A DNA stretch of 61,350 bases, the filler included, from Hausera hauseri (Eukaryota): assembly GCA_046269625.1 (NCBI GenBank). It is 10 parts of 10 records of this genome, joined end to end, with 100 filler letters (N's around TTAATTAATTAA, not from the genome) between each part and the next. Parts side by side here need not be neighbours in the genome. Positions count along the whole stretch, not along the records: positions 19,720 to 28,256 come from JBJURY010610999.1; 9 more parts are not named here. One strand, 5' to 3'. The position numbers and the translations under genes were made by a program. The notes beneath the pieces were generated by a model. It ran no database searches. It was given only the letters and a program-made list of their open reading frames with translations, and had not been told where the DNA came from. Below, piece after piece: positions 5,139 to 34,094 of the stretch. Every line of letters begins with the position of its first letter. Position 1 is the first letter of the stretch.

Positions 5139-5162
5139 GGCCCACCTTCAACTACTAACATT

Positions 5163-5180
5163 TGGCGACCCTAGCAGGAC
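5163..5180 (+). promoter_or_regulatory. Primer binding site, probably tRNA-Arg
   Basis: TGGCGACCCTAGCAGGAC, 2 nt after a CA LTR end; complementary to a tRNA 3' end ...GGTCG-CCA typical of tRNA-Arg. Confidence 0.8.
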
Positions 5181-8207: not shown

Positions 8208-8357
8208 GTGGTAGTATATAATATCAGTGAATGAAAACACTTCACTTTTTTTTCACTCCCTACCGGTCGTTCAAAAAAATACAAAAGGTGATCTGACGCT
8301 ATGCTTCGCTTCGCTTTTTCATTCGCTTTTTCATTCACTAATATTACATACTACTAC
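8208..8357. mobile_element. ~150-bp MITE-like insertion with 30-bp terminal inverted repeats
   Basis: 8208-8237 GTGGTAGTATATAATATCAGTGAATGAAAA versus reverse complement of 8328-8357 GTAGTAGTATGTAATATTAGTGAATGAAAA, 27/30 identical. No TSD recognised. Confidence 0.7.
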
Positions 8358-8728
8358 GCGCTCCTTCATAAGAGACGTGGTACAGTGGCTAATGAGTAGT
8401 GGTTACGCAAGCGAACTGGATTATAGACTTTACTTTAGAGGTAGAATATTAGACGAACTGGAACAATTAATAGACGTCAGGATTATCCCAGGTGAAACGA
8501 ATAGAATAGTAGTGTCGGTTGCTTCGGATGAAACAAAAGAAGAGGCCACAAGGAAGGCTAAAATGGATTAATGTGTAGGACGGATCGTGAAGATAGGAAT
8601 GCAGCAATGTACTTCGAGTACTTGCAAACGGACGAAGACCAGAAACAATACGATACAATTTTTTACCACCCAGTGAGATTGTATTAGTTATCACGAAACA
8701 GATGCATCCAGTCGGCAGACCGCGAAAA
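8358..8728 (+). pseudogene. Ubiquitin-like (beta-grasp) domain(s) ending in MxxxGRPRK within the element B polyprotein
   Basis: YRLYFRGRILDE, IDVRIIPGETNRIVVSVASDETKEEATRKAK and, after a stop and frameshift, LRVLANGRRPETIRYNFLPPSEIVLVITKQMHPVGRPRK align by eye with ubiquitin and with the domain in element D. Confidence 0.55.
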
Positions 8729-9244
8729 ATACGAGACGAAATTGATTATAATGGCGGTTTAATTAGAGAATTGAAGCAAATGTCCATATCAACCTTTAGT
8801 ACAGAAAACTAAAAGCTGAATGAACATGAAAATTTTGAAACGCATAGTAAACCACTCTAGTCTATGTGACGAAATATTAGACGAAAAAGAGAAATCTATA
8901 TTAAATGCAGACAGATCAATGAAAAATTTCCTTTGTAAACTATCGAAAAACATCTTGAGCGGTGAAAAGATGATAGAGGGAATTATGGTTGAGAACATCA
9001 TAGAAGAGTTAAGGAAAGTGCTACTGTATTTGGCCATTAAAACAAATTTAGCTCGAGAGAATGAATTTAACAAAGCCACTAATCTAGTGCGAAAAGCTGC
9101 CAGGAAATGACCCCGAGAAGTAGACAGGTCTAAATTATTCGGAAAAGAAGAAGAGCATCAAAATGGACCCTCTTTTAACAATAGTAATAGTAGATTCGAA
9201 GACATGTTACAAAGTTTAACCATAAATAATTGGGGAAATGAACC

Positions 9245-11070
9245 AAACTGGCTAATTAATTTCCTAACTGTGATGATTTTAATAAGACAAATGGGAGCGG
9301 TTACCATATATGACTGACAAATTCAAACTTGGTCAAAAATATTCATTGATAGATTTAAAAATGTGCGAAGATGCGAGACAACATAAATTAGAAACAAGAG
9401 AAAAACTACGTACTGTATCAGCAACGAGAGCTAGTCTCATTAGACGGGATAGAATGTATGTTGCGAAGATTTCGCAGTATCTTTCATTGTGGACTAATAC
9501 ACGGACATTTGTTTATAATCAAGTCAACGACCCCAACAATTTCAATGAACTTAGAATCCCAGCATTGTAAGCAGGCTAGAGAGACAGGCAGGTTGAAATG
9601 GGACGGTATGGAACTAGAAATGCAGCAAGGAAAAATAAACACAGCATATAAAGTAGCAACCGGAAGATTAGATATGAATACCGGACAATGGAACGGTGCA
9701 GAATACAATACTGAAAAAGGATTAGAACCAAACATATGGGTTGTGGATTTCTATGAAACCGAGATGCGCACACGAAAGGTGATATTTCATAACGCTACTA
9801 AGCTCTACATAAAAAACCAAAAGTGCCATATTCAAAAAGGCACCTGTGCTTTTTGGAAGTTCAGTAGTAATTTTGGAACCTCCAGCCAAGACGGATTGCA
9901 ATTTTATTGAAATTAAAGAACTTAAGTTTAATGAAACGACAGGAAAACGTTATATAAGTAGCACGGGTCCTAATTCTAAAACAGAAGAAGACGTAGCTGA
10001 GCATCCCACACCTACCATAGTAATTTCCGATACTCATGGATTAAAATTTATGAAGAAAGATGTACTCACGAGGTGAGATGTAATAATGTATGCCACTAAC
10101 TCTGAAGCGTTCTTTGTAGCGGAGACTGAGATAAATTCCAAAACGTTCAATCTTGAGACTCAAGATATCCAAATTGAGGATTATTTTAAAAATAGAGACG
10201 ACTATTTTTACTGCAAATGGCAGGCCGGAATAGCTGAGTTATACCACAAAATGATAACTAATGACTGCAAATTAGACTTAGAAGTCATAAGAATCAAACT
10301 AACTTTAATATATGACAATCGTGAGCTACCATCACTAATAATTCCGATGAAAGAAGGCGTTTTTGGTCGAGTGACAGGAGAAGTCCTACTGACTTATGAA
10401 TGCGAGAAAAAGGATGTACCCATTAATGTGAAAGAGAAACGATATATACAAGAACTTCCAATAATATATCAGGACATGCCGAGATTAATAACGCCAATTA
10501 CTAGAGTATTACTGGCAAATTCCACCCAACCGACGATTCTGAAAGATTGTAAGACCAGTCTAAGAGAACCCATGTTTAGACGTAGTGAAACCGATTGGGT
10601 AAGTTTACCAAACGGTGGTATAATTACGCCGCTTACCAAGTTAACGGGAACGAACTTAATAAAAGGAATAACTGATGATAAGTTTCAAGATACTGCAGCA
10701 AAAGGTATTTACCAACCAAAAGAAGTGGTAGCATTCAGACAATTTCTCGCTTTCCCATGCCAACGCACACATGAGCTAAACAGAGCTGTGCATACGATAC
10801 TAGAGGATTCATGTTATCATGCGAAATGAGAATAGTTACTTGGTGTTAACTACTATAAGAAGGTGACTACTGAAATATTGTATAAAATTTGGGGAAGGTT
10901 TCTGATGTTCAGACTAGCAGCATCAGGATTCCTAGCAATTTATTTATTAATTTAACTGGTTAAAGCGATAATTCAAGCGGTCATAAATGGATACGAGATC
11001 TTCACCCTAACAGGATTCGCATGTAAAGTTTTAACGGCTATTATCACACCTTTTGGTAAATTCTTAAAGG
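9245..11070 (+). pseudogene. env: Envelope-like glycoprotein, chuvirus G-like (class III/gB-type fusogen), with internal signal peptide and C-terminal TM segments
   Basis: NWLINFLTVMILIRQMGA|VTIYD..YSLIDLKMC; DYFKNRDDYFY..AELYHKMITNDC; GVFGRVTGEVLLTYEC; YIQELPI; ITPITRVL; GIYQPKEV; WGRFLMFRLAASGFLAIYLLI*LVKAIIQAVINGY. Motif order matches chuvirus-like glycoprotein EVEs as I recall them. Confidence 0.82.
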
Positions 11071-11333
11071 TTTTCGAAGAAAATAGATGGAAAGCGAATG
11101 TTGAACGATATGTTGGCTATCATAATCGAAAACGTAAAAGGAGACACATATTTAGTTACAAACGCAAATTCATAAATGTCAAGACACGAACAGATAACCC
11201 TGACGATGACGAGCCTAAGGGAGGAGACGCCGTCTCTAATACATACAAATACAGAAATTATTCCGTTATAAAACCACCACTACCAACACTACCGCCAACT
11301 TCATCTATACATGAAGACTGTGAGAAATAATCT

Positions 11334-13906
11334 GTGAGCTTATATCAAACAGATATCTATAGAAAACCGTTCAGCCCTGAAGATCCTTATGAAGGAGCAA
11401 AACATTACGGTATATTACGTAAAATGCAAGAAACGAAAAGAACATTTGCTCCATATCGCCGTTCAGCAGTCGACGACCATGGAATAATCTATTCACCAAG
11501 AGTACCTAGGCCAAACGAAATACGAACCACATTCTCACAAGACCATGAGACGCAGAGTTTCAGGAACCAAAAAATACAACCTCTAGCTAGGAGGCAGGAA
11601 ACGGAAAACGTTAGTTGCACGAACAATGAACTGTACTCAAATAGAGAGCTAAGACAGTTAATCGACCAGCCAGTAGCGACCAATGAAGTTAGAATTAATG
11701 GCTATAAGGTGTCAACGATTCAACAACCAAAGAGAGTGCCAAATTACTATGGTGCGATAATCGAAAATAGACCCTTCTCGAGAATTCAGTTAAAAGATTG
11801 GGAAGTTTGCGCATTGATAGACACTGGATCCGAAATATCACTGATAAAAAATGATTCAATACCGCAGTTCCTACGAAAGCAAGTATACCTACCTTCAAGA
11901 ACAGAACCAGGAAGCATTGGAGCTTTTGGACAGTCATCCAAAAGCAAATTCCGATTGAGGCCAGAAATTTACATAATGGGGCAATCATTTCATCACGAAT
12001 ATTCAGTAATGGAGCAGTTAACAGATGATGTAGTTTAAGGATGCGATCTGTTGAGGCAATTACCTAATGTAGCAATAGACTTCCATGCAGGAAAATTAAT
12101 AGAGCTCGGTCCGACAAAAGGAATTAAAACCACCAAAGATAGTCAATTTGGAGAGGCATGGATTCAAGTGGACGAGAACATTCCACCTAAAACCGAGGTA
12201 TTAATATATGCTCAGGTACGTCAAGACGACGACCAACCAGTGTATTTTGAACCAAAGGACATATTAACAAGCAATGTATTAACAAGAGTATCGACGGGCT
12301 ATGTGCCCATCAGAATAGCTAATAATGCACCAACTCCGATCAAACTGTATGCCAATACCACTTTTAGTCATACGTAGAGAGTATCGTCAATAACTATTGA
12401 AGAAAAACCTTACAGGTGTGCCAAATTCCTACCTCACGTCGAAACTAAATTTTCGCCAGAAGCATACTGTCGATTCTACGAATTACTCTGTCGTTATAGC
12501 TCAATCATCGCGAGAGACGAAGAATACATTGGCAGAGCCAAAGCCTTGAGACTAACAATTCCATTTAAGAAAAAGCCTGGCTCCAACGATGAAATAGACT
12601 TAGAGTATCAAAAGATGCCGAAATGGTATCCTCCTCCGCACTCTTTAAGGCCAGAGATAACAAAAGATGTCGAACGTATGTTAAGGGCCGACATATTTAG
12701 ACCAAGCTATAGACCTTGGTACTCACTTATACTCATGGTCAAGAAGAAAGGTACTACAAAGCATCGATTTTGTATCGATTATCGAGAGTTAAACACACTT
12801 ATGATAAAAGATTCCTTCACTTTACTGTCAGTAAAAGAAGCCCTAGATAGACTTTCCGGAGCTAAATGGTTTACCACACTCGATCTACAATCCGGATATT
12901 GGCAAGTACAAATAGACGAAGAAGGCCGCTACAAAACTGCTTTAAAAACGTACGACGAAGTGTATGAATTTAATGTCGTGCCTTTCGGGATAACCACCGG
13001 GCCAGCCATCTTTAGCCGAATGATGAACAAAATGCCGATGGGACTGGAACACGCCTTTGCGTACCTGGACGACGTGATGATTGCATCAAAAACGGAAGAA
13101 GAACACTTAAATGATATTGAAGACACGCTCATGACAGTACAGCAAGCTGGGTTGAAATTAAACCCCAAGAAATGTAAATGGGCTCAAAACGCTGTATTTT
13201 ATCTCGGGCATATAGTTGGAGAAGGAGGATCGAAACCTGATAAATCTTTGCTAAGTAAGATATCAAATTATATCGAACCCCAGAATCAAAAGGAGTTGAG
13301 ACACTGGTTAGGTTTATGTTGGTATTATGCCACTTATGTACCAGATAATTCAAAAATAAATGTGCTCTTGTATTGCTTACTTAAAAAGGAATTAAATGGA
13401 AATGGACAGACGTCGAACAGAAGGCTTTTGACGAAATGAAGAAAATCTTAAGTCGCGAACCAGTTTTAAGATACCTTGATTTTAACCTACCGTTTATAAA
13501 TAAAACGGATGCCAGTAAAGAAGGCATTGGATATGAGTTAGCACAGAAACGAGAGAATGAAGGTCTAGAACACCCAATCGCATACGGAGGACGGTCACTA
13601 AAGAAGGATGAAAAGAATTACTCGGTCACGGAATTAGAAACGTTAGCTGTAAAAGAAACTCTACGACACTTTAATGTATGCGCCTACGGACAGAAGATTA
13701 TAATTGTTACGGATCACAAAGCGGTTACAACTTTGAAAAGTGGAGCAAATAACCAAACATGTAGACTCAACAGATGGATTGTAGAGATCTCACGATATAA
13801 CATTGAATTTCAATACAAACTTGGAAGCAAGCATGTCGATGCCGATGCATTATCAAGGCTTAAAATCAAAACAAGTGCAATTGCGGTAATGAGAAAAGCT
13901 AAGCTC
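11334..13906 (+). pseudogene. pol: Pol: aspartic protease, RT, RNase H (Ty3/Gypsy)
   Basis: CALIDTGSEISLI; RFCIDYRELN; LDLQSGYWQV; VPFGI; YLDD; KTDASKEGIG; YSVTELETLAV; TDHK; ADALSR. Confidence 0.95.
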
Positions 13907-14006: not shown

Positions 14007-15046
14007 CGATATGCCATTGTTGACATCTTTGTTCAATAAACCCATGTTGCTCACAATAGATTGCATATATATTCCAACATTATCGCTGGTTTCGAAATCC
14101 TGCTTGTATGTCTCAACAAAATCCGTATTCTTATCAAAACTGATATAATTCACATTGCTATGGGTAAACGTTTATGAATCGGTAGTATAACTGCCCGTTT
14201 TTTGAGTAGTCGTTTGAAATATAACGAGCACAAATTTTGGCAATCGCATGTCACCAAACTGCACAGCTTTGTAAAACGTAGTTGAACCTTTGGATACGGT
14301 GTAAAACACGAGTTCTGTGCATTGTATTGGGTAACAGGCATTTTGTGTTTCCAAGCCCAATCGATGTCCCATGAGCACAGATGGTTCTACCTTTACACGA
14401 CATAGGTATAAGCGTGCCTCGGTAATTTTCAGTATGAGTTTGAGATTTGCAACTGCGGTTTTCAAACAAAAGACATTGTCGCTGCGTTTGGGCCGAATCA
14501 TGGCTTTAACACCGGGCAGTAAGTATTTCGGCGGATCAAAAAAGTCAAAGTACAGCGGTACACACATGGTAAGCGCTTTTGATTCAGCCACCTATGCCTG
14601 ACATTTTGCTGCAGTGGCGTCATATTCGATGGTTTTCGTCAAATGAGTCGTTTTCGTGTCAGCACTGTAATTCAGAGCTGTTTTAATAAATGCTTTGATA
14701 CTGTATATACTTGTATTGCCTTCGATTTTGACAGTTTAGAGTCAGTGAAGCCTCCATTTAGTGTGAGGAAAAGGTAATTGGCCGGTGTGACAGTGTCTGT
14801 TGAGGCGAGAACCGTTGATGCATCCTTTTTAACAATGACTTTTACATAGAGTAGCGTATCGTTGAAATCCAGGTATTCATTGTCCGATGCCACAATGCTG
14901 AACTGAATGTCAATGTTATCGTCAGTTGAAAACGAATCAAAGGGGTAGATTTCTTCAAATGTTGCATTGTCCATAACAACGTGTGGTGCGGCTTTGTCGA
15001 ATATACACAATTCAGATTTTTCAGATTGCATTTGTCTATCAATCAA
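14007..15046 (-). pseudogene. Polinton major capsid protein (double jelly-roll), truncated at contig edge
   Basis: KSELCIF..FEEIYP..IQFSI..EYLDFNDTLLYVKV; KYLLPGV..KRSDNVFCL; ARLYLCRVKVEPSV..ACYPI; LPKFVLV. Confidence 0.85.
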
Positions 15047-15059
15047 TCAATCGAAAATC

Positions 15060-15400
15060 GTACGACAACGACGTTTCTTTATAGTTGAAAAGCTAACTGA
15101 TCTACCACGTTTTCTCAAGCCACTACAAGCGAATTGTTTTTTGACTGATTCATTGATTCCCGGTGCAGGCTTTTTATTTCTGACAAGGTGTGTTCCTTCA
15201 ATGATTGTAAAATCGATTTGTTTTCATATAGTACATCCTATGCTGTTTTTGTTGCCACGGCTTCGATACGCTTCAACACCGAAAATGCTAAACGTGCCAG
15301 CGTACGCAACCATCCAGAGCTATACTGCTTACCAACGAAATACGGCAGTTTACCTCCTTGCTGGGGTTTACTGTAAATGGAAACGATTTCAGAATCAATT
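15060..15400 (-). pseudogene. Polinton core/PM-like small protein
   Basis: Manual translation PQQGGKLPYFVGKQYSSGWLRTLARLAFSVLKR, a QxGG motif plus amphipathic helix, at the usual position before the major capsid gene. Confidence 0.7.
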
Positions 15401-15403
15401 GTT

Positions 15404-16484
15404 TTATTGGATTCGATGGAAATGAAGAGTTAGAGAGGTTGTGGTACCGTACGGAAATTCAATAAGGTAGCCCTCGTCACATCGGATATTCACTTCAACA
15501 TTGTTTATAGACGTAGATGCCACAGGTAGGTACATTGGATTATCGAGCTTGACAGTGACATTGTCACCGGCAGTATACTTGCTGATTTCCGGATAAATTG
15601 CACGGAGTAGCGGTACACGTACTCCACCGACCAAAATCGGTTCGGTGACATTAACGTAAATGTACATTTGACTTAGTCCCGTTTTCAGTTGGGGTTTAAG
15701 TGTTGCAATATTTGCCACCTCCGCCCCTCTTTTCGTATATGATGTCTCAAACCGCTGTTTTTCAAAACCCAATAGCATGGCCAAAGCTTTGTCCAATGAA
15801 ATATCGACAATATTCTTTTTCAGTTCAAATTTAATGTACCCATTTTTATCTTACTCGAAAATTTTAAATATTGCCTTGTACTTTTTATTAGAAGAAAAGT
15901 GTTGACAGAGCTGTGATACAGATTTGCAATAGACATTGTCTTCACTCGATACGTATGACGTTGACACCCGCCCTGTTGTATAGGTAAATTTCACCGTTGT
16001 CTGGTAATATACGGGACTTAATCTTGGAGCAGTACATTTTCACTTTTAATATGATTGCCTTTGTACTCTGTATTTAAGAATTCAAATTTCTGTGCCATCT
16101 TAGCGGACAGAAAGGTAACAGTAAATTCCAAATCTGCCCTAAAAACTAAGTTTTCCCCTAAAATATAAATACCGATTTTGCCGTATGAACCGGAACCTGT
16201 TTCTGTAGTGTAAATGACCGATTCTCCAACCATTATTTTATTGTTAGTAAGTGTCAGAGGACAAGAATGTGTTTTGGTTTTAATAACAGTTTTTTGTACG
16301 TTATTTTCATACTACTTTTCAATGTCACCGGTGCGTAGAGAAAGTTAAATTCCGTCAGTGCAACCTCCCATTGTCCAGCAGATAAATTCAAAGAATTGTT
16401 CCAATTTACAACGTATTCACTAGCGGAATTGTTCGGACGAGTCGTCGGGCAACTGTTGCTGGGCAACACAATGTAAATACTCAT
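15404..16484 (-). pseudogene. Polinton minor capsid protein (penton), copy 2
   Basis: N-terminus MSIYIVLPSNS..PNN..QWEVALTEF; C-terminus MYIYVNVTEPILVGGVRVPLLR..PMYLPV..LTLHFHR. Confidence 0.85.
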
Positions 16485-16520
16485 GATCTCGATGGTGATG
16501 ATAATGATGCAGTTTGTTTA

Positions 16521-17591
16521 TTATCGACGTTGACGACGTCGAAAGTGTAACGTTAAATGTGTTGCTGACCCGAACAGAAATTTAATGGGTTCCCAAAATT
16601 CATCAAACATATACACGAAAATACTGTGCACAATATTGTGAGATAATGATAAGTACATGGGTCTTAACATAATAACGCGAACAGTTTCACCCGATGATGC
16701 TGATTTGTACGTGTCAGAATCCAGTTCGATAGAAGCCAGCAGTTGTTTACGTTCTCCACCAACAAGTACGGATTCGGTTAAGTCCGTTAAAATGTTGATT
16801 CGGTGAAATGCTCCATAGAGTTGTGGCTTGTATTTGCCAACAATAGATCATCCAACAATGTTTTTATAGAATTCACGTTGTGAAAAACCCAGATTCCGGG
16901 CCAATAATTCATCAAATACAAAATATGTAACATTGTTATGGCATGTAATCGAAATATGACCATCTGCGTTTATTTCACATGTCTTTACGGCTAACGTAGC
17001 CGTTTACTTGATGTATTCTCACAATTCCAGCTCCGTTTTTATTAGTAAATTGTGTGGTATAATACATGAGTGGAAAACTCATTCTGACGTAGTTCACATT
17101 ACTATAATATCAGATTCCTCATCGGATGAAAGGTCCAATTTTTCACCAATTATAACATGTTTACCTAACCTAGACGTTTTGATTGTACATTGACTGATAG
17201 AAAACCCCATGCCTAAGCATCAACTATAGAATTAAATTACATTTCCATGGGATTTCGATGTATTAGTTCCATACAATAGTTTGAAAAATAAGCATAAACC
17301 GAAAAATTTTCTCGCGAATAATTGCAAAGAATATCGGTTATTGTGTCGGATTGTCCGCAAAAGACTTAAAATCTGGTACGTTTCTTGTCGGGTAAAGTAA
17401 ATACCACTGGTCTGACGTACTGTCATTGGTAAAAATGTAAACATAAATTCCGTCAAAGCCACTTCCCAGGCTCCATGGCCTAAATCGACCGGTTGGTTCA
17501 AGTGCACGGTAAACAGTTTAGCGGTATTGTCGTAGTCGTCGTCATGTTATGATAATGATCTGTTACTATCAAATACCAAATAAATGCTCAT
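16521..17591 (-). pseudogene. Polinton minor capsid protein (penton), copy 1
   Basis: MSIYLVFDSN..NTAKLFTVHLNQPVDLGHGAWEVALTEF; C-terminus (manual) ILTDLTESVLVGGERKQLL..RPMYLSL..LTLHFRRR*. Confidence 0.8.
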
Positions 17592-18725
17592 CACTCATCT
17601 GCGATGCAAAAATCCAACACGGTGTAGTGTATGCGTGCCACTTGACGAGACATAGTTTATTCGAACCTTTGCCATGTGAACGTAGAATTTCCTGAATATG
17701 ATACACATCAAATTTTTCCGGTATTACTTGCAGTTCCTGTTCATAAAATTCGCCATGTATTTTGTCACCATTTTAATCTTCTAAAACGTACATAACCGGA
17801 CTTTGTTTTGTGTTGATTGCTGAAATTCGGAAAACCTCATCGCTCCAGTTCTGATTGAAATTTCTAATGAATGGTGTCATACTCAACTTCGAAATACGTA
17901 CGTAATCACCGATTTTATATTTTTGGTGACGATTAATTGTCTCTCGTCCTCGTCAATTGTTTTGATAAAATCACATATCCAAATCATCGATTACGTTAAC
18001 CGGCCGTAATCCATTGATGCCACGATGTGTCGAATGATTGTATGCATGAATAATATCTGGCAGTACATTTACCTAGCGCTTGTTGCCTTGCTTCGTAAAG
18101 ATTTTGTTTATGCGACCGTGCAATGTTCGATTAAATTGTTCAATGAGTGCCGCTTTGCATTACAAAAACAACGAGTAAAGGTTTACGCCGAACCGTTTCA
18201 AGACCGCGACAATGTGAGCGTTGTAGTATTCCTTACCCAAATCCGTTTGTAAATTATTCGGTGGCTGTTGTTGTTGTTTTTGTTCGAACAGTGTCTGAAC
18301 AGCGTCGGCAATCTCTTTAGCGAATTTAGATTTCACGGCAACTGCACGTGCAAAGCGACGCATGTCAGTACGTACCGATATTCATCGTTGATGCTGGCAT
18401 ACGAAATCATTTTCATCAGATCCATTTGCCATACTTTATTTACACCGGAAGCACATTATGCACAAGTTGGAAACCGCCTTCTTATCGGTTTGTTTAGGCT
18501 GTATGCTTACTGTTTCTCGAGCCAACGTTGGGTCCCGTGCCGAATCTGTTTGACAGTCTTTTCCATCTTGTCGACAACAGTATACTCGACGGGGTGACGC
18601 GGATCGAACCACACGTTGCCTATCGTTGCCGTCAATGGTGTTGGTTTTGCTTGCATTACAAGAGTTAGAACGAAACGTAAATGAAAGATTCCGTAAACTG
18701 GGACAGAAAGATGAAAACCATGCAC
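17570..18725 (-). pseudogene. Polinton retroviral-type DDE integrase with C-terminal chromodomain
   Basis: WFDPRHP; WLEKQ*AYSLNKPIRRRF; WQMDL; LQTDLGKEYYN; EQFNRTL; KYKIGDYVRISK; NWSDEVF; FYEQELQ; LVKW..CWI. Confidence 0.88.
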
Positions 18726-18767
18726 CCATATTACCGATTCATCATATACTTACCGTCATTGTTTATA

Positions 18768-19055
18768 CTAAACTGTTCCACCAATGAGTTCATCCAGTAA
18801 TAATGTGACAATCGGTAGAATTGCACCAAAGAATCCACCGTATTCCTGGTACATGACCTTCCGTTTCAGTCGTTTACGACAAGGGTTCGAAAAGCCAATG
18901 AGTCGTTTTCGATACTTTAGTAAATTGCGCTTTCCACTGCCAGTGTCAATGTGATCCACATCGATATTGTACAAATTTTCCATGAAATCGTCTACTACAA
19001 ATTGCGGGAATGATCGCAGTATGTTTCGCTTATGTATTGTAGACGCCTTGAGCAA
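18768..19055 (-). CDS. Conserved Polinton small protein ending in xGG|F plus hydrophobic helix
   Basis: KRKVMYQEYGGFFGAILPIVTLLL, a motif typical of the ORF between ATPase and integrase in Polintons. Confidence 0.65.
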   Translation of the reverse strand: MLKASTIHKRNILRSFPQFVVDDFMENLYNIDVDHIDTGSGKRNLLKYRKRLIGFSNPCRKRLKRKVMYQEYGGFFGAILPIVTLLLDELIGGTV

Positions 19056-19374
19056 ACAATAAAGTACGGCTGACTACGTTTGAATCGCATGTTTCTCGGA
19101 TGTATTGATACTGCTGATGAGATGTAGCAGTTGTTTGTAACCGTTGCCACTGTGACGATAATTTGCATCTAGTTTTGTTGTTGTTCAACGAAGCACAGAA
19201 TTGTTTAATCGCTTGACTGTAGTGGTGGTTCGTTTTGATACACGTTTTTGCCACCGGACACCCGTTTGATATTAGGTTGTTTACGTTTAACAATCGTTTT
19301 TCGGAAATTCTTAATTTTTATCGAAATCATGTCTTTGTCAATTTTCGAATTTGTTTATAGACACATACACCACC

Positions 19375-19619
19375 CTTCTAATGGAAAATATCTGTTCGTG
19401 CACGCATTTCATCGGGATACTCTTGTGTAAAGTCGATGAACAAGTATCCGTGTGGCTCGTTCGTAGCATCATGATATGCATATATCAAGTAGGCTCGGTT
19501 GTGAGGAAATGCTTATCGTGCAACATAATCAATGATAGTCTAATCACGGGGATTTTTGAACAACACCAAATAGTGTACGTTTAGATTTCTTGTTCGATGC
19601 TGTCCGCCCTGATGGAACA
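19375..19619 (-). pseudogene. Polinton packaging ATPase (FtsK/A32-like), C-terminal part
   Basis: Manual translation RTRNLNVHYLVLFKNPRD*..AYHDATNEPHGYLFIDF..RARTDIF. Confidence 0.85.
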
Positions 19620-19719: not shown

Positions 19720-20790
19720 AACAGAATCATGTTATATAATTCAACTAAATCCATTTTCGCGGTGTGATAAACATAATCTATCTTATTATTCGTATATAAA
19801 TACCACTTTATGTCTTTAGTTGGTAGCTTTCATGTATTCGCTAAGGTTTCTTTTGTTACGAATAAGCTCTCATAAGATGTCGAATAAACTGCATTTGACC
19901 CGCAAGTCGATACTGCTCCTTTGCGTGCTAATACTATTCTATCTTTATCACTAGATGACATTAAAACTTTCAAAAAAGTAGTCTGTTTTAAGGTTCGTGG
20001 TGTAGGTAAACTTATATTATGATTATGTACAAACTCTTGCTACTTGTCATCATAATATAAATAGCCTTGTATTTCATACATAGGTACCTGTTTAAGGAAA
20101 GCTAACGGACATATCGTAACTGTTTTTTCCCAGACTAGCGTAGATTCTCCTCATGTACATACTCCATCACAATATGCACCAGATGGTGCGGTTAACATTT
20201 TTCCTGTGATTGCATTAAAATTTACTTTATGTTACTTTATGGTGACGGTAAAATCTTCTATTTCTACTACAGCAGATTCTTTTTGTCTATTTATCATCAT
20301 ACTTTCTCCTTTACAAGCTCCACCGTATCCGAGCCATATTTTTTCGGCTGTAACTATACGTGAATAAACTCGTTTTCCTATACCTACTTGTTCTGTTTGT
20401 TGTAAACCTACGTGGATTGAATCTGTGGCTTTTCTACAATTTTCTGCAGTAATTATTAATTGTCTAGGTAATCCTTGTAGAATAATTGCGGAATTTCATG
20501 AGTTATGACCACAGTTATAAGCAAATACTACTTTATTAACCTGACATTCCTTTACCTGTACTTGTTGATAACTGATTCTTTGATACAAGTTATAATTGTA
20601 AGGGCCTTCCTTTTTTACTGATATCGAACTTGTGTTTTGACATTTACCTATATCTACTAATGAAAGTCTGGCTGTTACTTCTGGTCTAGAGATATCGTAA
20701 GCTTCTAATGCTTTTGTAGTTTTTAAGCTGCTCACTGATATCAAATACAATAACAAATGAATGATTTGCACTACCCATTCTGAAATATTG
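19720..20790 (-). pseudogene. env: Chuvirus G-like envelope glycoprotein, N-terminal half
   Basis: WVVQIIHLLLYLISVSSLKTTKA|LEAYDISRPEVTARLSLVDIGKC..YQRISY..ECQV..YNCGHNS. Continues in one frame through point stops: ENCRKA, GGACKG, STLVW, TCGSNAVYSTSYESLFV, YTNNKIDYVY..LVELYNMIL. Confidence 0.85.
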
Positions 20791-21433
20791 GTATCCTTAG
20801 GGTATATTAATGTAGTGGGGTTAAATTTTTTGAGAATTTCATTCCAACCACTGTTTTTCGTTACCCAATCTTTTGTTAGTTTATCCATGTGATGGGCTAA
20901 ATCTCTTACTATGTGGTGTAACTTAGCATCGACCTCTGTTTGATTTTTAAAACTAACCACTATGCAGCCTAACGCCATCAGCAATCGGTTTTAATCATAA
21001 TGATTTAATAGTCGTGTCAATGCTTTATTCAAACCTCCTCTCAGTTTATATTTCTGTAGTAACCTAGTGATTTGCGACGAAAATTTCTAGCGGTTTCTAT
21101 TACAGACTGTAACGGAATTGTCGTAATTGCTGGTATTTTCTTAAGCTGCTTTGGATTTGCTTTCTTGATTAACTGTTTCAGAAGTTCATGAGTTGTCAGT
21201 GTTACTTTTGGTACATTTATTTCACTTTGTTTTGAAGTTCCCGAGATTAGACTTTGTATTGGCTCATTCTCATTGTCACTAATGGTGAATCGTTGAAAAT
21301 TGTCATATAATATATCTTCCAATGTTTCCCGTTGTTCCCTACATCTTCGTGACAGTGGCCTTTTCTTTCTTTGCCTTTCTGGCTTTTCCTTTTCTGGATT
21401 TTCTTCATCATCACTTATTGGGTTAAAGTCACA

Positions 21434-21700
21434 TTTTCGCGGTCTCCCTCCTTTTTTCATGGTGCCAATTTCCATAGTGATCTGATAAGTCTTTCCGGTA
21501 AGGAGCCCATAATCTACAACATAATCACTGTCAACGGCTAATCTGCCATAAACATCGGTTTTCACTATTATATTGGTCTCTAGTTCTAATTCGTCCAGTA
21601 CTTTTTTTCGAAGATCTGTGAATTTAGTAAACATTCCCGCTGTTACCTCGGTTACTTGTTTCCGCTTACTGATTCTAATTTCTATATTTATAATATATGG
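21434..21700 (-). pseudogene. Ubiquitin-like domain followed by KKGG-RPRK
   Basis: INIEIRISKRKQVTEVTAGMFTKFTDLRKKVLDELELETNIIVKTDVYGRLAVDSDYVVDYGLLTGKTYQITM aligns in register with ubiquitin (G47, D52, D58-Y59, T66 equivalents). Confidence 0.65.
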
Positions 21701-22499
21701 TTGTTTTCTTCAGTGTTTTCGTCTTAAATCTCTTCCCAGAGTTTTTAATAACTTTCTTGAGGCTGAAAAACAGAATGCATCATCTCTCGTTAGTGGTAAG
21801 AGTGATGGTGCACATTCTATTCGACTAGCTAATGGTAGTAACTCGTATTGCCGTAAAGCATTCCATACTTCGTTAGGTGCTGAATCACCCATTTGTAATT
21901 TAGCTTTAATTACTTCATTTGTTGATTCTAAAGGTTCACCGTGTACTATAGAACCTGGTGGAATATTTACTTCTGGAATAATCTTTGGGTTTTCAATTGG
22001 TTGCAGCATGGTATCAGGGTACTAAATCAGATCCGGTATAGGTGTGAGTTCATCATCTTCTAGGATTTCAAATATTTCATAATCATCGACTACTTGCGGT
22101 TCCTTTTTGGATGTACTTGGTTGTAATGAATCCCAAATATTCTCGAAAAAAGTTGGTTGTTGGGTTGGAACCTTTGCTTGTGAAAGTGGTGTAACTAGTC
22201 TATCGTTATAAGGTTCTATCCATTCTCCCGTTGGTTTTATTCTGGTGGGTTCATGTGAATATTCGTCAGAATCCATATGTGGATGCCTTTACGCTATTGG
22301 CCCAATTGACGGAATTGTTCTTGCTTCCTTAGTTTTATCAAGTTTTTGTATTATTGGGAAGGCTATTCGTAATGTTTTCTGGCTTTCTATTATCCACTGT
22401 ATATTATATTCTACGCTCACAGTCTTTAGGTATTCATCTAGGCATCTTTATGCCGTAATTTCCGAATTATGACCGTGGTATAGGTCTAAACATTTGTAG

Positions 22500-23655
22500 C
22501 TTCTGTTGGTCTGTTTCAAATCATAGATAGCTGTTAGATTTTTTGAATTTATTCTCAATATATTTAGTAGCTCTGTCAACTAGCGTCCAATGATTACTTT
22601 TCCTGGTAAATATCTATTCATAAATTCACTTACCGACTCTTGTTGTTGTGGATAAGACCGTCTGCTATATTCAGTGTACTTAGTAGTATCTGGTATATTT
22701 GGATATACATGAATATTGAGGATTGTTTTTTCTTCTAGATTCTTGACAGTGACCTGAATAAGTCCCTTTTAATCTCCTTTGGTTATTCATCTACCGGTAA
22801 GAATTATTTCTCTGTTTTGTGTTACTGGTTCATCCACGGTTAACACAGGCGTTTTCTTAAGCAACTGTATTAAATATATCGGACAGTTATGCAAAGGTTG
22901 AATTTGATAATCTCCTTCGTAGGGATAATTAGGGATTATCTTAGTTTCTTTGTAAACTATTACCGTCTTATTGTTGATTTGTAACCGGGCTTCTCCTTGA
23001 TTAGTAATTATAGCACATGGCGCGTCATTTCTTTTAACCTGAATATCAGTCCTTTTTAAATAAATTTTATCAATACCTTCCATACCGATTGATCCTTGTT
23101 CGGCAATATCTGCGAATTTTATTCGGTTGGATTTCTTATCAGCGAATATTTTATCCCAATTCTGTATTATATTTACATCCATACGCTGTAATGCCGCTTC
23201 TGGGATCAGAGTAGTATTATATGTCATCTCTTGTTGAGGGTGTTTATCATCCTTGAATATAGGTCTGCTTGGAAAAATATAATATGGAGATCCCTGACAG
23301 TTAAGTTTAATTTTATATTCTTGTCGTAAGTTGGTTACTTAATTGTAGTAAAGTACTTCGTCTTTCCCATTCATTGTATGGTAGGTTGAAATTCTGATCT
23401 GCACTAAACGTACCAAAGACATCTGTTTCCTTTAATTGTACTTGTTTAAATAACCATGGCAATTCTATTCCAACAATAAGTTTTCTAGAGAGTAGCTGTT
23501 TAAGGTTTTCGTAGCATTTTTCTTTTTCCAGACATACGTTTTCTGATTCAATTATCAACTCACCTTCAATATTCTCTATTCTTATTCGATTAACTTCTGG
23601 TTCCTGTTTATTATTAATAGTCTTGTCCGCGGTACAAAGATTAAAAGCAAATTTT
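22500..23655 (-). pseudogene. Two degenerate DEDDh (REX4/ISG20-like) exonuclease-fold domains separated by a linker
   Basis: FAFNLC..VNRIRIENIEGELII..LKQLLSRKLIVGIEL (23655-23390) and GLIQVTVKNLEEKTILNIHVYP..TKYTEYS..EFMNRYLPGKVIIGR*L..LNILRI..AIYDL (22820-22500). Confidence 0.5.
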
Positions 23656-23852
23656 TGATTTCTTTAATTTCTGGCCATAACATATATGGAAGTGTAATAT
23701 TTTAAATGTCTGGTACCTTTCGCTCTGCTTGATCCAAATAATTACTTGTTATGAAGGGCTTTTCCAGGATTGAACTATTGGATGGCGGTTTAGGTTCAAC
23801 TTGATGGTGTTCTATTATGGGTTTTGCCATTAATAAGCTCGTGAAGGCTGAT

Positions 23853-26438
23853 TTAGTTTTGTTCATTGAAAGTTACTGAATGACGGAGTGAAGCACTTCT
23901 TTCGTCGTTGTTACACTTCCTATTATCACAAGAGATTCCTTTCTCTTTTATGGAACTATCATAAGATGGTATTGTTGATTTCGACTTTCTTTCAGTGGAA
24001 TATTTGGAATATTCTGGTGTCGTATTTTTGTCATATATAAATGGGGAAGTGTTTCTATTAGATGATGAGTCATTTCGTCTAAAACTATAACCTGACGGTT
24101 GGGTATATCTATCATTATTGTTATTTGGTATGAAAGAAGGGGTTCGATTTCGGTCTCTTGGAGGATATGGACTAGGATTCCTATTGTATCTATCCGATTC
24201 TCGTCGAGGTGGAGTATAGTCACGTCTTCTGTCATAGTTTCCTGATCTTAAATCATTATACCTATTTCTATTGTCATTTCCGGAATTATACCTATCTCTA
24301 CTATCACCTCGCCGGTTATCTCTTTCGCTACTATGATTTCTATTAAAGTTATTATATCTTTCTCGACTATCATCTATTCTAAACCTCTTACGACTTTCGC
24401 TTCGTCTATCATTATAATATTTAGGTCTTGATCCTTCCAAACGATTGGTTGGATATCGTGTTCGACTATCATCTCGTAGATATCGTGTTCGACTATCATT
24501 TCGTTTATAGTATGAGTTCATTGAATTGTTTCTATCCTCGTAACGACCGGAGTTTCGGTCGTTACTGTATCTTTCTCTACTAGGGAATCGGCTTCTGTTA
24601 TCATTTCGGTCTCTTGAATAGCCTCGTGATCTATATTATCTGATATCATTTCGCTGTTGATCATCATAGTTTCCCCTATTTCGTTGATATTATGTATCTC
24701 TGGTTGCTATTATAGTTTCTAGATGACTGGTTAAAACTTCCTCTCTCTGGGGTATTACTTCGCTATGGTGTATTGTTGTCTTGCCGATTAGGACTTTGGC
24801 TTCTCGAAGAATCTCTCCAGGGTGAACTGCTACAATTTGGTACATCTGGCCTCACTAGTAATGGTGTCGTAGCAACTGCTGCGATTTGCGTTTGATAAGT
24901 CCATAAAGGTGTTTCGTCTATCCGTGTTGCCATTTTCGGGTATAATCTATCAGCTCATTAATATTGTTGGATGTATGAAATTTAACTCTTTCTCGTAAGG
25001 GTGGTAAGAGTCCAAGTACGAATTGTTTCGTGATCATGGCACCAAAAGCGTTTGCGTTATGGCCAAAATATCTAGTCATTGCTGTATTAAACCTATTGAT
25101 ATAGGTCAAAACTTCTTCATTTAATTTTTGTTTACAATTTTGGAATTCTAAATATTTTTTTTATCTTTCCGATTTTGTAAGATCCTTTCTGTATGTTGTA
25201 TCCAGGTTTCATTTACTCGTGCACGTAGACGGGTATTGCCATTCTCAAATCGTTATTCACATGTACTGGTAAGAGTGATATCTTCTTGACATCATTCCAA
25301 TGCATGGCTGTAGCTAGAGAATCATATTCATCCAACAAATCTTCCAAGTCTGATACTCGTCCTTCATATGGTTGAAGACAGGGAAGCATCTGATATTTCT
25401 CTTCTCTTCTTTCGTTACTATTTGGTAAAACGTAACCGGCATTATTATTAGGGTCGTAGTTACGCTCATTTTGATGAGCTAACAAGTCTCGGTTATTCCT
25501 TAGTGGATCCATGTTGTTGCTATCAGTGTCAGAAATTTCACAAGGTATGGAACTTAGTTCCACGGAGAACTCTGGTGATTGTACTTCTTCCTGCTGTTGA
25601 GTTATCATTTTCTTTGTCCTTACTTGTTTTAGACGTTCGTTTAATTGATTTATACCTCGAGTTAACGTTTCTATTTAATTTCTGGTATAAGTGTTTTCTA
25701 CTTGTATTTGCTCCTGCTCGCATACTATGATCGCAACTTCATTTTGTATTCCACCTAACCTTTGACTCACTTGCCTCTCATTATAATCGGTCTGTTCTCT
25801 ATTTCTATGTATTGCTGCTATATTGCCAATAGTCTGTTGTCGTATATCACATATTTGTCTGGAGTGGATGTTAACTTCTCGTGCAAGTTGGCCAGTCCTC
25901 TCCTCCAATTCGTTCAAGTCTATATTATTATCACTCACCTTTTGCTCTATTTGGGTGGTTATTTCTTCAACTCTGTCCAATCTTGTACTATTATTCTCTG
26001 TTATATCCCCTCATTTTTGTCGGGGTATATCTTGTATTTCTTCAATTAATTGTCGTATACTATCGTCCGTTCGATTCTGTCTTATTCTTAGATCATTCAC
26101 GTTCACCTGATGTACTTCATAACGTGTTCGACATTCAGATTCCTGGTTAACTATCCTCTGTACCAATTGTCGTGGATTAGGTACGTTACGATATTGCCCT
26201 ATAAGCGGCCTTCTTCGACCACTGACTTCGCTTACCCAGTGGTGCTGTACCGGGGTGGGGACAGTTGTAATGAATCGATATCGATTAATGATTCTGGAGC
26301 TGATGCAGCTCTTAAGGCGTCCAAACTAGAGGCGGAACTAATATTTTCTTCGTTTGAATTAATTTCATTAATTGCCGTTAATTGATTCCGTGCTAGTCGT
26401 CCTCGGGATCGGGTATTGTATTGATGTCCCTGCGCCAT
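23853..26438 (-). pseudogene. gag: Gag: coiled coil, capsid, long RS/RD-rich basic region
   Basis: MAQGHQYNTRS start; coiled coil 25980-25675; LQPYEG..DEYDSLATAMHWNDVKKISLL; QKLNEEVLTYINRF..QFVLGL; RS-rich 24800-23853. Confidence 0.82.
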
Positions 26439-26473
26439 TGTTATTAAGGAAAACTAAGTTGTTATCCATATTA

Positions 26474-27050: not shown

Positions 27051-28256
27051 TTAATGTTCGTCGATGGAATCATCTTCATTATTCTCTTCTGAAAACTGAA
27101 AATACGTTATTCGTCTTTCTATAAGACTTCTGCAGACTGGGCAATTCATTATTTGATCTGAGCATTTCTCACCCGTTTTTAGATGACCCCACGGCAAAAG
27201 GATAACCTGTGCTACGTCTACGTAGCAGATTACACATTCGAGATCGCGTAGATAGAGTTTTTCAAGAATATTTCGTTCGGGTTCTCTCCCTTTCTCCAGG
27301 GAAATAAAATTCAAGTTCTGAAGTAATTCGAACGCATTTGGCGACCAATCTGGTTGAGTTTCTGTTCGATTATTAATATACTGTAGGATATTCTCGAGCT
27401 TTGCCGGATGTCGAGATATTATTGATGTAGCTACTGGGCTACCCTGATAACTTTCATATAGGTTTCCGATATTGAATTGTACTTAACATTGTTTCTTCGT
27501 ATGATTTCCTGATCTTTTATATATGGAATATTCACATTTATTGGTATGTAATATTTTCGGACATCGTTGATCAATATTTTCCAACCAGTACGTTTCTTTT
27601 AGACATAGTACATTTAACATATTGTGCTTCTTCTTTGAATATCAATATCACTCCTTGTCTGGCTAAATCTTCAATATGTTTATTTCTTTCCAAAGTTAAT
27701 TTTCTCTTCTATACGGTATTTGAAATCAAATGTGCATTTTCTTCCACCTCTGTGTTATCCGTTGAATAAACCATTCGCACTGGTATTATCGCAACGTAAT
27801 CGGTATCCCGATACAAATCAGGTTGTTTATCAAAAATATCTGTAAACGGTATATTGCTGACGTTGATATTCAATAAATAGGGACAGGTAGAATATAGTTT
27901 CTTATGTATCTCTTTTGGTCGATCTTTCATCTGTTTATATTGGAATTGTCCCTGGCAATAAAAGCATTTAATCTGTCCTGTTGTAGTACGAAATAATCCG
28001 GCTTTAGTATACAATTGCGCTAATTCTCCTGGAACGGGTGAATTTGGGTACTTTAAGAACGATATTTTTCTATTTTATGTGTCTCTCATGGAGTTATCTA
28101 ATACTCTTATTTTGGAGTAATTTATTATTCGTTTAACGAATGACACTGGTCCGTACTGTCTATTTTGGTAATGTAATAGATATTGTATTGTATTAAAATG
28201 GATTGATTTCTGATCCTCATATTGTTTGGGTGTTTGGAGTTTTATATCTTTCACCT
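27051..28256 (-). pseudogene. iap: Inhibitor of apoptosis protein (BIR-BIR-UBA-RING), intronless
   Basis: BIR1 NRKISF..YP..AGLF..KCFYC-x16-H-x6-CPYL; degenerate BIR2 DLARQG..VKC..W.E..H...CEY; UBA-like SPVATSII..FELLQNL; RING CVIC..LPWGHL..CPVCRSLI. Confidence 0.9.
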
Positions 28257-28356: not shown

Positions 28357-28869
28357 ACCATACACACTAGTAACACGGACATTGCTTACACCTTCTATAT
28401 GTCTCTATTCTCCTTCCTACACACTCCCGACTTTTATTTGTCGCACCATGGTTCTGTGCTACATCCATATTACTCACTTTCTTCCTTCGCTTCTCCGATC
28501 ATTCATATCACCCTTCACTTTCACATCCGAGGCGGTTCGGTCCCTGATCCTTCTACTAAAAAATCCTCCAAAACAAGACTTGGTCGTCGCCCTGCTGACT
28601 CTTCACAATTTGCTTCCCCTAATCTTCCTGGCACAGAGTTCTTCCTCGATAAAACTAATTCAAGCCGCACTTGGCTGCAATTTCATTTACAATGGCTTAC
28701 AGCCAGTCATATTACCGATTCTTTCTTGCGCGCTAACAGCTTGTTACTTCCTCTCCCAGCAAATATCAAGCATCAAATCAATAATATTGTTGATATCCTT
28801 ACTTTGCCAACACCATATGACATGCTTTATGAGTTTGTTCTTCATATTACCGATCCATCGATTGATAAT

Positions 28870-29365
28870 ATAAAACTGTGGTGCCCACATTGACTCATTT
28901 AAGAAAAAAACTATGGAATTAGCAAATAAAATCATTTGTAAAGTTATCATAAATTTATATAATTTAAAAATGAATAAGTGTCGTAATTGCAGATTTTGCG
29001 ATACCCGCCAATCTAGTGTTGTTTAAATAAAAAAAATTTGAGATTAAAAAATTTAAAAAAGTAGATTTTCAGTTTTTTTTTCATTCTGCCATTTTTATTT
29101 ATCAAAGAAATGAAGTAACCTTTTTATTCAATGCCTGTACAGACTCATTTTTTGTTGGGAACAAGGTTCTGTTTAGAACAAACTGTCGATGCTGATCATT
29201 TTTGCAAATCTTTAAAATCCCCCTTGACCATTTTTGCAGAAACTCTGGGAGACTCATAACCTTTCTCGGGGGTAGGTTAGAACTCCCTACAAATGCGGCT
29301 AACTTCTTGATGCTATTCAACTCTGATTTGAATCAGAACGAATTGGAGATAAAGTTCAAACTTAA
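28870..29365. mobile_element. Insertion splitting gag of element E, possible Helitron remnants
   Basis: Gag stops at DPSID and resumes at IQKYFNEHSISNQKPS. The insert has a degenerate GC hairpin plus CTAG-T (28988-29017) and minus-strand NRTLFPTKNESVQALN resembling a PIF1 helicase motif. Confidence 0.45.
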
Positions 29366-32300
29366 CAAATACAGAAGTACTTTAACGAACATTCTATAAG
29401 CAATCAAAAGCCTTCTGACTTTCTGCAGACCTATATTTCACACATAAGTGCTCTTGGCGTTACCTCCACCAACAATGCGGACTTGATTCGTCATTATTTC
29501 CTCTCCTCCTTGCCCATTTCCATCAGAGCTCTCCTTACTGTCGTTGACGACTCGACGGCGATTAAAAAACTTGCCCTATTGGCTGATAAAAGTTTCGAAA
29601 TTTTACAAACTAACAACTCACAACCCGTAGCTGCAGCAACCACGCATACTCCATTGCACGTAGACACGACTGTTTTCGCATAGCAACTACAATTAATGCA
29701 GAAACAATACGATACTCTACAACATTCAATTTCCGCCATCACGGCCCAACTAAGTAATCTGTCTATGTCTCGGCGAGGGGAGACCCGTGCATCGCGTGAG
29801 CATAGCCTCTCCAGGCACTCATTTCGTTCAAAATCTCTTGGCGGACGAATGATTTGTTTTTATCACAATAAATTTCGTAGAAACGCAGAAAAATGTCTAT
29901 TGGGCTGTAAATTTTATGACGAGCATTTTGCGGTGGACAGCCCTATCTGTATTTACCACGCAAAATTCCACTATCTTGCCAAATCGTGTATACCGGGATG
30001 TAAACTAAACAAAAACAACTTCAGTTTTTATTCATCTTCTTCTCCTCCTTTTTTTATCATTCATCTACTTTTCCTCCACAATCTTCAAAAACTAAAAAGG
30101 GCGCCAGATGTCACTGCACATTCTGGCATAGGTAATACCGCTCAGTCTTCTGGCAGTCTTAACACCGCCTCCGCAGTTTTTCTGTTAAAAGTTGCACTGT
30201 TGTCTAGCAGTGCTCCACATATCGATTTTCTTATCGATCCAGGAGCTGACTTGTTACTCGTCCCTTTGTCCTTCGTCCCTACACCCACTGCAGTTTCTTC
30301 TCCCCCGCTTTTCACTGCCAGTGGCCAACCTTTGACAATCGCAGGTACCACGGAACTGATTTTTACGTTTTCAAACTTATTAGGCAAGTTTGTCTGAAAA
30401 TTCCACATGGCCAATATTAAATCGCCAATAATCGGCTCAGCATTTGGCCTCACACGACCTGCTAGTTGACTGCAAGTATGGCTGTTTGCTACGTAGAGAC
30501 TCCGTCGAGAACGATAACAATTGCCTACCAGACAGCTCAACAGGCACTTAGTCTGCGAACTTACATGTGAATTTGACAAATTCCTCGTCGGTTAATAACA
30601 ATTCATTTAGTAGTTTATCTATTTTCTCAATTACATTTCAAACATCAAAGTAAACTTTAAAACAATCCGTTAAAACGAATGTTAATGGCGGCGATGTCGT
30701 TCGTTCTTCGCCAATCACAGTGACCTCCTCTTTTGATAATATGCCTCAATCATTTTTATCACTAGATTCCAATCTCAAATCCTACATCATTTCTTCTTGT
30801 TCTCGCATACTCAAAAAGGACTCTAGTTTTATGCCCCCGTCAACAACTTATCACCACATTGTCACCCAACACCAAAGACCTATCAGAAAAAAGGTGCGAC
30901 CATTATCACCTCGTAGACAAAAAGCCGTGGAATTAGAGTTTAACGAACTCGAAAAATCTGGTATCATTCGGAGTTCAAAATCAACATGGGCTTTACTATT
31001 ACATGTAGTATCAAAAATACGGTATTTTTCGACCATGTGGCGACTACCGTCAAGTAAGCAATCTAACCATCATGGACGTTTACGCAGTATCGCTCATAAA
31101 AGACATCCTGCACAGTCTTAACAACACCAATACGTATTCCACAATACATATGCACATAGCCTGCCATCAAATTCCCTTTGCACCCGATGACATTTCAAAA
31201 CTGCTGTCAACATCCATTTGACCTGTACTAATACATCTTTATGCCATTTGGTTTACGTAACGCAGCCCAAACCTTTTAACGCCACATCGACACCGTTCTC
31301 TCATGCCTTGGTTTTGCTCATCCGTACATCGATGACATATTAGTTGCCTCCAAATCCGTCAAACAACACCGTGAACATCTCCGAATTATTTTTCACAGAC
31401 TACATCATAGCAACTTACAAATTAACTTCTCAAAGTGCAGATTCTTTCAGAAACCTGTCAATTTCTTAGGCCACATCATCACTCCGCACGGCCATTCTCC
31501 ACAACCTGATCGACTACAGAAATTGAAAAATGTAACAGTACCAACGACCACTAGAGATGTGAGGAGTTTTCTTGGCACAATTCATTTCGTCCATAAATAT
31601 GTACCGCATTGCTCTAAGCTTACAGCACCTTTCGCACACCTCTCATCTGGAAAGAAAAGGCAGTTAATACAGTGGACTCCTGATTTAGTCAACAAATTTG
31701 ATTACTTACGTGAAGGCCTAAAAATCGTCGAAATACTGACTTATCTAAAACCGGACGGGGAACTGATACTCACCACCGATGCCTTTACCACAGCTACTGG
31801 TGCAATACTACACCAGATTTCCAATGGCGTCGATGAACCTTTAGAATTTTACTTTCGAAAATTGACACAACCAGAAAGCCGATATGCAACATTTGATCGT
31901 AAGGTACTAGCCATATTTCTGGAAGTAAAACATTTCAAGCATCTCTTCTCTCCTCCATTTATCATCCAAAAGGACTACAAGCCTCTACTTCACATCATGT
32001 CACTAAAACAGCCATCACCGATACAGGAACGAAAGATATCGTACCTATCTACATTTAGCTTCGTCATAAAGTATATTTCAGATACTAAGAATTTGGTCGC
32101 GGATTTCCTGTCGCAGTCGATCAGCTCAATTACGGTTAAATCAATATTTTCTATCGAAATTCTAAAGCTCAATCAGCCGTCTGCTGATATTCTTAGCTCT
32201 TTCAAATCCTTCGAAATCATTGATGTCATTGCATACTACACATCTAACCATGGTAATAAAATAATCATTCTTGCTCCTTCTTTGCAGAAACCAGCTTTCC

Positions 32301-33778: not shown

Positions 33779-33961
33779 TGTAGTGCCACGGTCTAGAACA
33801 TGGCCCTCCATTTTTGGCAATAGTCACCGTTTGGTACAGCTAGGCCGGCACGGTTTTCGTCCTGCCTTTTACTTTTGGCCTGTGTTTATTTGACAGCCCA
33901 ACAGTGCACATTAGTGTCAAATAAAATCAATATTCTTATTTGGCTGTTTATCAGACTACCA
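33779..33961 (+). repeat. 3' LTR of element E, after polypurine tract 33768-33778
   Basis: G8TGA PPT, then TGTAGT...ACTACCA ends with AATAAA at ~33920. Confidence 0.75.
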
Positions 33962-33994
33962 ATTATTCTATCTTTTAATTTTGAACGTTTGTTT

Positions 33995-34094
33995 NNNNNN
34001 NNNNNNNNNNNNNNNNNNNNNNNNNNNNNNNNNNNNNNTTAATTAATTAANNNNNNNNNNNNNNNNNNNNNNNNNNNNNNNNNNNNNNNNNNNN
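33995..34094. other. Artificial contig linker
   Basis: N44-TTAATTAATTAA-N44. Confidence 0.99.

Follow-up and report, generated by a model that had tools for sequence, protein, structure and literature searches.

A predicted ubiquitin-like domain with a conserved basic tail in the Gag-cargo-Env chain of a decayed Burro-like element of Hausera hauseri

We describe a predicted ubiquitin-like (Ubl) domain encoded by element A, a decayed Burro-like Ty3/gypsy element of Hausera hauseri with a Gag-cargo-Env polyprotein. With a probability that we put at about 0.65, this domain served as a protein-binding module, left uncleaved and with a basic patch behind it, and not as a cut site for host proteases. 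Its reading frame and the order of the genes are shown, and the domain is conserved in one intact relative, the protein P0002. Several observations favor a module that stays in the chain: the domain core is conserved, its identity to ubiquitin-type modifiers is at most 21%, the residues at P6–P3 are not those of a modifier, the tail carries an indel, and the invariant columns follow the Gly. Counting against it, a Gly-Gly (GG) is kept in both element A and P0002 and lies, by structure, 1–2 residues from the terminal Gly of the modifiers.

Results

Element A and its intact relative

The window, i.e., the whole stretch of 61,350 nucleotides that was analyzed, is made of ten short contigs joined by N-spacers. 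Element A occupies the minus strand of the contig at 19720–28256, and a distant element, B, lies on the plus strand of another contig (Table 1).

Table 1. Features of elements A and B, in positions of the window
Feature	Position	Strand	Evidence or remarks
A: IAP-like gene, BIR then RING	27054..28074	-	BIR E 4.5e-8; zf-C3HC4_3 E 1.6e-10
A: Gag-like region with Arg/Asp/Ser-rich tail	23853..26453	-	Retrotrans_gag E 0.076, weak
A: cargo region, from Gag to Ubl	21712..23792	-	tblastn 43–56% identity to P0002; P0002 330–1023
A: predicted Ubl domain (core about 21700–21469, then tail and KKGG-RPRK)	21434..21700	-	fold model; core against P0002 1027–1104
A: GG and basic motif GR[PL]RK..D[FY]N	21419..21451	-	common to element A, P0002 and element B
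A: charged spacer, acidic and basic runs	21208..21418	-	poorly kept, 38% identity to P0002
A: helical domain, weakly Bcl-2-like	20819..21205	-	weak Pfam Bcl-2; 74% identity to P0002
A: hydrophobic helix before Env	20717..20816	-	Kyte-Doolittle peak 1.63–1.78; 86% identity to P0002
A: gB-type/Monjiviricetes-like Env, cut by contig end	19720..20716	-	PF24664 E 1.5e-8
B: whole element	5139–13906	+	gag with CCHC knuckle, PF24664 Env, then protease, RT, RNase H
B: two candidate Ubl-like segments in tandem	8302..8734	+	first without GG; second ends HPVG-RPRK
B: env, protease, RT, RNase H	9286..13906	+	GAG-ENV-POL order

The contig of element A stops inside env, and for this copy only the order of gag followed by env is visible. 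A search among 1.84 billion representative proteins returned P0002 (E 3.6e-41, 75% identity, 1963 aa). The other two of the three matches, P0003 and P0004, were unrelated repeat proteins and were dropped. P0002 is a single frame that is colinear with element A from the Gag tail to Env, joining the Gag tail, cargo, Ubl, helical domain, membrane helix and Env; its residues 1345–1952 match the Env family PF24664 (E 1.9e-63). The tail of the Gag-like region of element A aligns with P0002 38–310, and the cargo region (about 700 aa, 42–65% identical to P0002) is continuous with Gag and Ubl in that protein. No Pfam family came close to its cut-off in the cargo region. DEDD exonuclease domains, proposed there by eye, were discarded after showing no Pfam match and pairwise z values of −0.6 to 2.5.

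Measured against P0002 over 24686–19722, element A carries 20 in-frame stops and two frame changes; therefore, this copy is dead and its polyprotein cannot be made. The helical domain is itself disrupted by a frame change and stops. The IAP-like gene, upstream of gag on the same strand and contig, is likely cargo of element A; since no LTR was seen, we infer this membership. Counting the Bcl-2-like domain discussed below, this BIR and RING gene would bring the anti-death cargo genes of the element to two, as in Burro.

Identity between element A and P0002 is uneven along the chain: 42% in the linker upstream of the Ubl, 73% in the Ubl core and 89% over RLRKCDFNP. The hydrophobic helix (86%) is the most conserved long segment between the two. 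Because the Ubl core is 73% identical while the linkers on its two sides are at 38–42%, we conclude that the domain was under selection. This comparison has n = 2, plus the distant element B, since P0002 was the only relative found. Searches of 5.8 billion proteins returned none for P0001 (0 of 150 candidates, 122–389 aa), for the env of element B (0 of 753, 439–2000 aa) or for P0002 1020–1345 (0 of 3845, 30–1078 aa), and scans of viral and metagenome contigs returned no relative.

A beta-grasp fold is predicted

A preliminary description of this DNA had placed a ubiquitin-like domain ending in KKGG|RPRK at 21434..21700. Read off the minus strand, 21700–21434 does encode 89 residues without stops that end in KKGG-RPRK. 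At the sequence level, the stretch matched no Pfam family at E ≤ 10, and phmmer against the PDB gave seven weak matches with no Ubl or modifier among them. Ubl- and SUMO-like clusters appeared in the ESM Atlas at 0.81–0.82, including PF11976 and PF00240, which we take as a lead only.

Structure prediction was more telling when relatives were included. A single-sequence AlphaFold model was all-beta and uninformative (pLDDT 48), whereas a second model, built from a three-row alignment of element A, P0002 and a short piece of element B, had the secondary structure order E-E-H-E-E-H-E at a mean pLDDT of 54.8 (37–45 for the other four models). With this low-confidence model, no Foldseek row against the PDB reached E ≤ 0.001; the best had E 2.1e-3 (prob 1.0), and at the top stood ISG15, SUMO, ubiquitin, ubiquilin and RA/PB1 domains. 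The top viral rows, also at E > 0.001, were mostly ubiquitin-like. VIA-align placed 40 of 48,161 chains at Z ≥ 8, the best being FAT10 (Z 9.2, rmsd 2.1, 75 aligned). The strand order and the ubiquitin, SUMO and UBL domains at the head of both comparisons bear out the fold that had been claimed, within the confidence of the model, and the stretch is supported as a predicted ubiquitin-like (beta-grasp) domain.

The same scores could be taken to mean that the fold is a modeling artefact and the stretch another small alpha/beta domain. The blank Pfam and PDB sequence searches, the all-beta single-sequence model, a best pLDDT of 55, the Foldseek E-values and Atlas clusters no better than 0.81–0.82 would all suit such a reading. 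We consider it very improbable, given that three structure libraries put ubiquitin-, SUMO- or UBL-type domains on top and that the Atlas leads include PF00240 and PF11976, the latter reported at the same position in Burro (PMC6431247).

The fold does not reveal what kind of Ubl this is. Built-in UBLs (Get5, HOIL-1L, kindlin, midnolin, Rad23, PB1) score within one Z unit of the modifiers; consequently, the fold cannot separate a modifier from a built-in domain. Identities of modifiers and built-in UBLs to the model were 4–16% in VIA-align. Across the structural alignments from Foldseek and VIA-align, identity to the modifiers represented there was at most 21%.

The GG and the basic tail

The GG of element A lies at 21451–21446 and that of P0002 at residues 1111–1112. 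It is present in both while the residues before it have changed, P6–P3 being TMKK in element A, KKKK in P0002 and MHPV before a single Gly in element B. As to the conservation of the GG across copies, element A and the sole intact relative agree and element B, with VG, departs. At the GG frequency of P0002 itself (6 in 1963), a GG would fall within 10 residues of any chosen point by chance in about 2.7% of cases, which makes the kept GG suggestive but not strong.

It had also been stated that the domain aligns in register with ubiquitin. This holds for the core; the GG falls 1–4 residues past that of ubiquitin. In the structural alignments, residue 83 of the model lies on SUMO1 97 and ubiquitin 75, and residue 80 on ubiquitin 73. 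With the residue numbers that we assume for the terminal Gly of the modifiers, their last Gly maps to model residue 83–84, and that of element A is residue 85, i.e., 1–2 residues late. Judged instead by the DY..G.T motif, and with what we take to be the ubiquitin numbering, the GG of element A comes 4 residues later than in ubiquitin and that of P0002 one residue more. This register is soft because the tail has pLDDT < 50 in the model. Tail length differs by one residue between element A and P0002 through an indel.

These observations bear on the possibility that a host DUB or ULP cuts after the GG, exposing an Arg at the new N-terminus and freeing a Gag-cargo-Ubl product without help from the element's protease. 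Such a cut would draw on the GG of both element A and P0002, on its place 1–2 residues from the modifier C-terminus in the structural alignments and on the G-R pair kept in all three copies; moreover, a polyprotein with a membrane helix downstream needs cutting. A tail of the modifier type (LRLRGG) is absent, the copies having TMKKGG, KKKKGG and MHPVG, and their P6–P3 are neither LRLR- nor QT-like. Cleavage by DUBs and ULPs depends heavily on P6–P1, where a single change at P5 matters (PMC4822132). The unequal tail lengths and the identity of at most 21% to any modifier weigh in the same direction. Common to all three copies is G-R-[PL]-R-K: the invariant columns of the three rows are mostly after the Gly (G85, R86, R88, K89, D91 and N93), on the prime side, which is the side least read by ubiquitin proteases. 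On balance, we regard host cleavage at this site as unlikely.

The core of an AT-hook is GRP with basic flanks. The preliminary description had offered, as an alternative, that GRPRK binds nucleic acid, and a basic patch does fit the conservation better than cleavage; a strict AT-hook fails, for element A and element B have GRPRK but the intact P0002 has GRLRK. In its full form, the idea would be that a true AT-hook holds the precursor of Gag, or the pre-integration complex, to AT-rich DNA, the Ubl being a passive spacer. In element A as in element B, GRPRK and its basic flanks come after a Ubl-like segment; across the 122,696 residues of the window in six frames, GR[PL]RK occurs only three times, twice at this post-Ubl position. 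Besides the missing core Pro in P0002, the Pfam scan gave no AT-hook match, and the strong conservation of the Ubl core means that the domain was not passive. An AT-hook in this strict sense is, in our view, decidedly unlikely.

Element B

In element B, the frame from the 3′ half of env to RT is a single one with stops. Its two candidate Ubl-like segments are known from sequence comparison. The first (8302–8568) resembles the Ubl of element A with z 3.9, and one of 500 shuffles scored as high; the second shares GRPRK alone with it, and 52 of 500 shuffles reached its score. As previously noted, element B has VG where element A has GG; this VG is in the second segment, in HPVG-RPRK at 8714. That this VG weakens the cleavage idea was part of the earlier argument, and it gains from the better-supported segment of element B, which is also without GG. 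GATE-16 ends in a single Gly and is nevertheless a pestivirus processing signal, so VG is not fatal to cleavage by itself. The helical region before env in element B showed no similarity to the Bcl-2-like domain of element A (309 of 500 shuffles as high).

From the GG to Env

The domain had been placed just upstream of env, and cleavage at its end was proposed as a way to free Gag from Env. Closer mapping supports neither statement. From the GG to the env-family match, which starts at about 20760, there are about 250 aa (about 740 nt), made up of the charged spacer, the weakly Bcl-2-like domain and a membrane helix. In P0002, the hydrophobic helix spans residues 1337–1355, the Env family match runs from 1345, and the likely mature start is near 1363. 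Since the Bcl-2-like domain and the helix intervene, a cut after the GG would release Gag-cargo-Ubl from a membrane-anchored, Bcl-2-like stub and not from Env; this distance of 250 aa and one membrane helix is a further point against host cleavage.

The helical domain reached E 0.09–0.13 against Pfam Bcl-2, under the cut-off and over profile positions 55–100 (the C-terminal half); P0002 was scanned as a whole protein only. In phmmer searches of the PDB, the BCL-2-related protein A1 matched at E 0.94, and designed thioredoxins did better (E 4.5e-4). The best ESM Atlas score for this region was 0.77, and no lead came of it. The domain ends in W-x4-G-W, a BH2-like motif. On these sequence data alone, a Bcl-2 identity may serve as a weak lead; the call gains weight because the same layout has been published for Burro. 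The hydrophobic helix that follows is predicted to be a tail anchor and/or an internal signal sequence. As a side observation, the C-terminal helix of the Bcl-2-like domain (20717–21205; P0002 1196–1360) may double as a tail anchor and as the signal sequence of Env.

Other contigs of the window

The minus strand of 45510–51495 carries the 3′ part of a third element with RT, RNase H and integrase. These are followed by a gene at 48373–46928, signal-like at the N-terminus and with a TM helix at the C-terminus, and by a further, unassigned gene at 46914–45510. At 14007–19619, a contig with a piece of rve integrase (E 0.0012) also carries, on its minus strand, several beta-rich ORFs that are related to one another; by eye it looks like a Polinton. 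The first 250 bases of this contig are found again at 56622–56872 (86%). Several more gypsy-like pol fragments, in near-identical pairs (84–92%) and on both strands, are found at 28357–45395 and 51595–56331.

Discussion

We hypothesize that the Ubl of element A would sit on the cytosolic side of the Gag-cargo-Env chain, where it could dock proteins of the ubiquitin system, such as UBA, proteasome or E3-type partners. The IAP and the Bcl-2-like cargo carried alongside it may prevent the death of the host cell. The KKGGR[PL]RK patch and the charged spacer might serve in RNA binding or as a signal for nuclear import. At the membrane, signal peptidase would cut after the helix (20786–20732), sending Env into the secretory pathway, and the release of Env would leave a tail-anchored Bcl-2-like stub. 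For the joints on the cytosolic side, the cutting enzyme would be the aspartic protease of the element itself, the gene of which would lie beyond the contig end in element A.

Host cleavage after the GG, unlikely as we hold it to be, would have consequences worth stating. It would make element A a retroelement whose polyprotein is matured by the ubiquitin system of the host, extending to retroelements a trick of pestiviruses, and it would explain how a one-frame Gag-Env-Pol chain comes apart at the membrane. Under the N-end rule, the N-terminal residue, here the conserved Arg, sets protein lifetime, and as a new N-terminus it could possibly set that of the anti-death module. Our literature searches turned up no study addressing whether a retroelement Ubl is cleaved.

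The precedent for host cleavage comes from cytopathic pestiviruses, in which ubiquitin, cut by UCHs at the junction with NS3, and GATE-16 are reported to serve as processing signals (PMC8310069). The inserts described in these accounts are host mRNA of ubiquitin or other modifiers, placed directly before NS3 (PMC8310069, PMC13517609). As far as these descriptions go, the likeness lies in a viral polyprotein that contains a Ubl fold ending in Gly-Gly. In contrast to those inserts, the Ubl of element A is an old domain that has diverged (at most 21% identity), lacks a modifier-like tail and lies 250 aa from Env. For an uncleaved binding module, a working analogy is Ubl1 of coronavirus nsp3, reported as an uncleaved viral Ubl that works as a binding module, with the N protein as partner (PMC8769549, PMC12323374). 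In the aspects covered by these sources, both are built-in Ubls in a membrane-anchored viral polyprotein; no homology is implied.

Gypsy-like elements with a similar Env have been described in several phyla. Errantiviruses with GAG-ENV-POL order and an HSV/gB-type Env are reported from Platyhelminthes, Bryozoa and Nematoda, and in them a signal peptide or a TM helix borders the Env ectodomain (PMC13524379, Chary & Hayashi 2026). We find PF24664 in element A, element B and P0002 and a comparable predicted signal or TM helix flanking the Env ectodomain, the full gag-env-pol order being visible in element B only. The word “ubiquitin” has no occurrence in the main text of that paper or in its seven supplements with text, which indicates that cargo domains are not annotated in these parts of it.

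The closest known system is Burro/GYPSM1, the giant gypsy elements of planarians, in which one frame is reported to hold Gag, BIR, a Ubi2/SUMO-like domain (PF11976) before BCL-2, and Env (PMC6431247, Arkhipova & Yushenova 2019). Burro Env, related to the fusion proteins of mononegaviruses, lies between BCL-2 and the protease; the polyprotein has about 5000 aa, with MATH and ankyrin motifs and with PR-RT-RH-IN in frame after Env, and the authors suggest that it meddles with apoptosis and ubiquitination (PMC6431247). GG, cleavage and AT-hooks are not mentioned in the section on Burro in that source. Like Burro, P0002, which is colinear with element A, has Gag, the predicted Ubl, the weakly identified Bcl-2-like domain and Env in one frame; a BIR (IAP) cargo and decaying copies with stops are further likenesses. 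The part from Gag to Env is more compact in element A and P0002 than in Burro, BIR and RING lie upstream of gag in element A, and no MATH, ankyrin or CCHC match was obtained in element A or P0002. Our model adds structural support, at the level of a prediction, for a Burro-type domain previously seen by HHpred only. Taken together, element A adds a decayed and compact example of the known Burro layout of Ubl, Bcl-2-like domain, gB-type Env and IAP.
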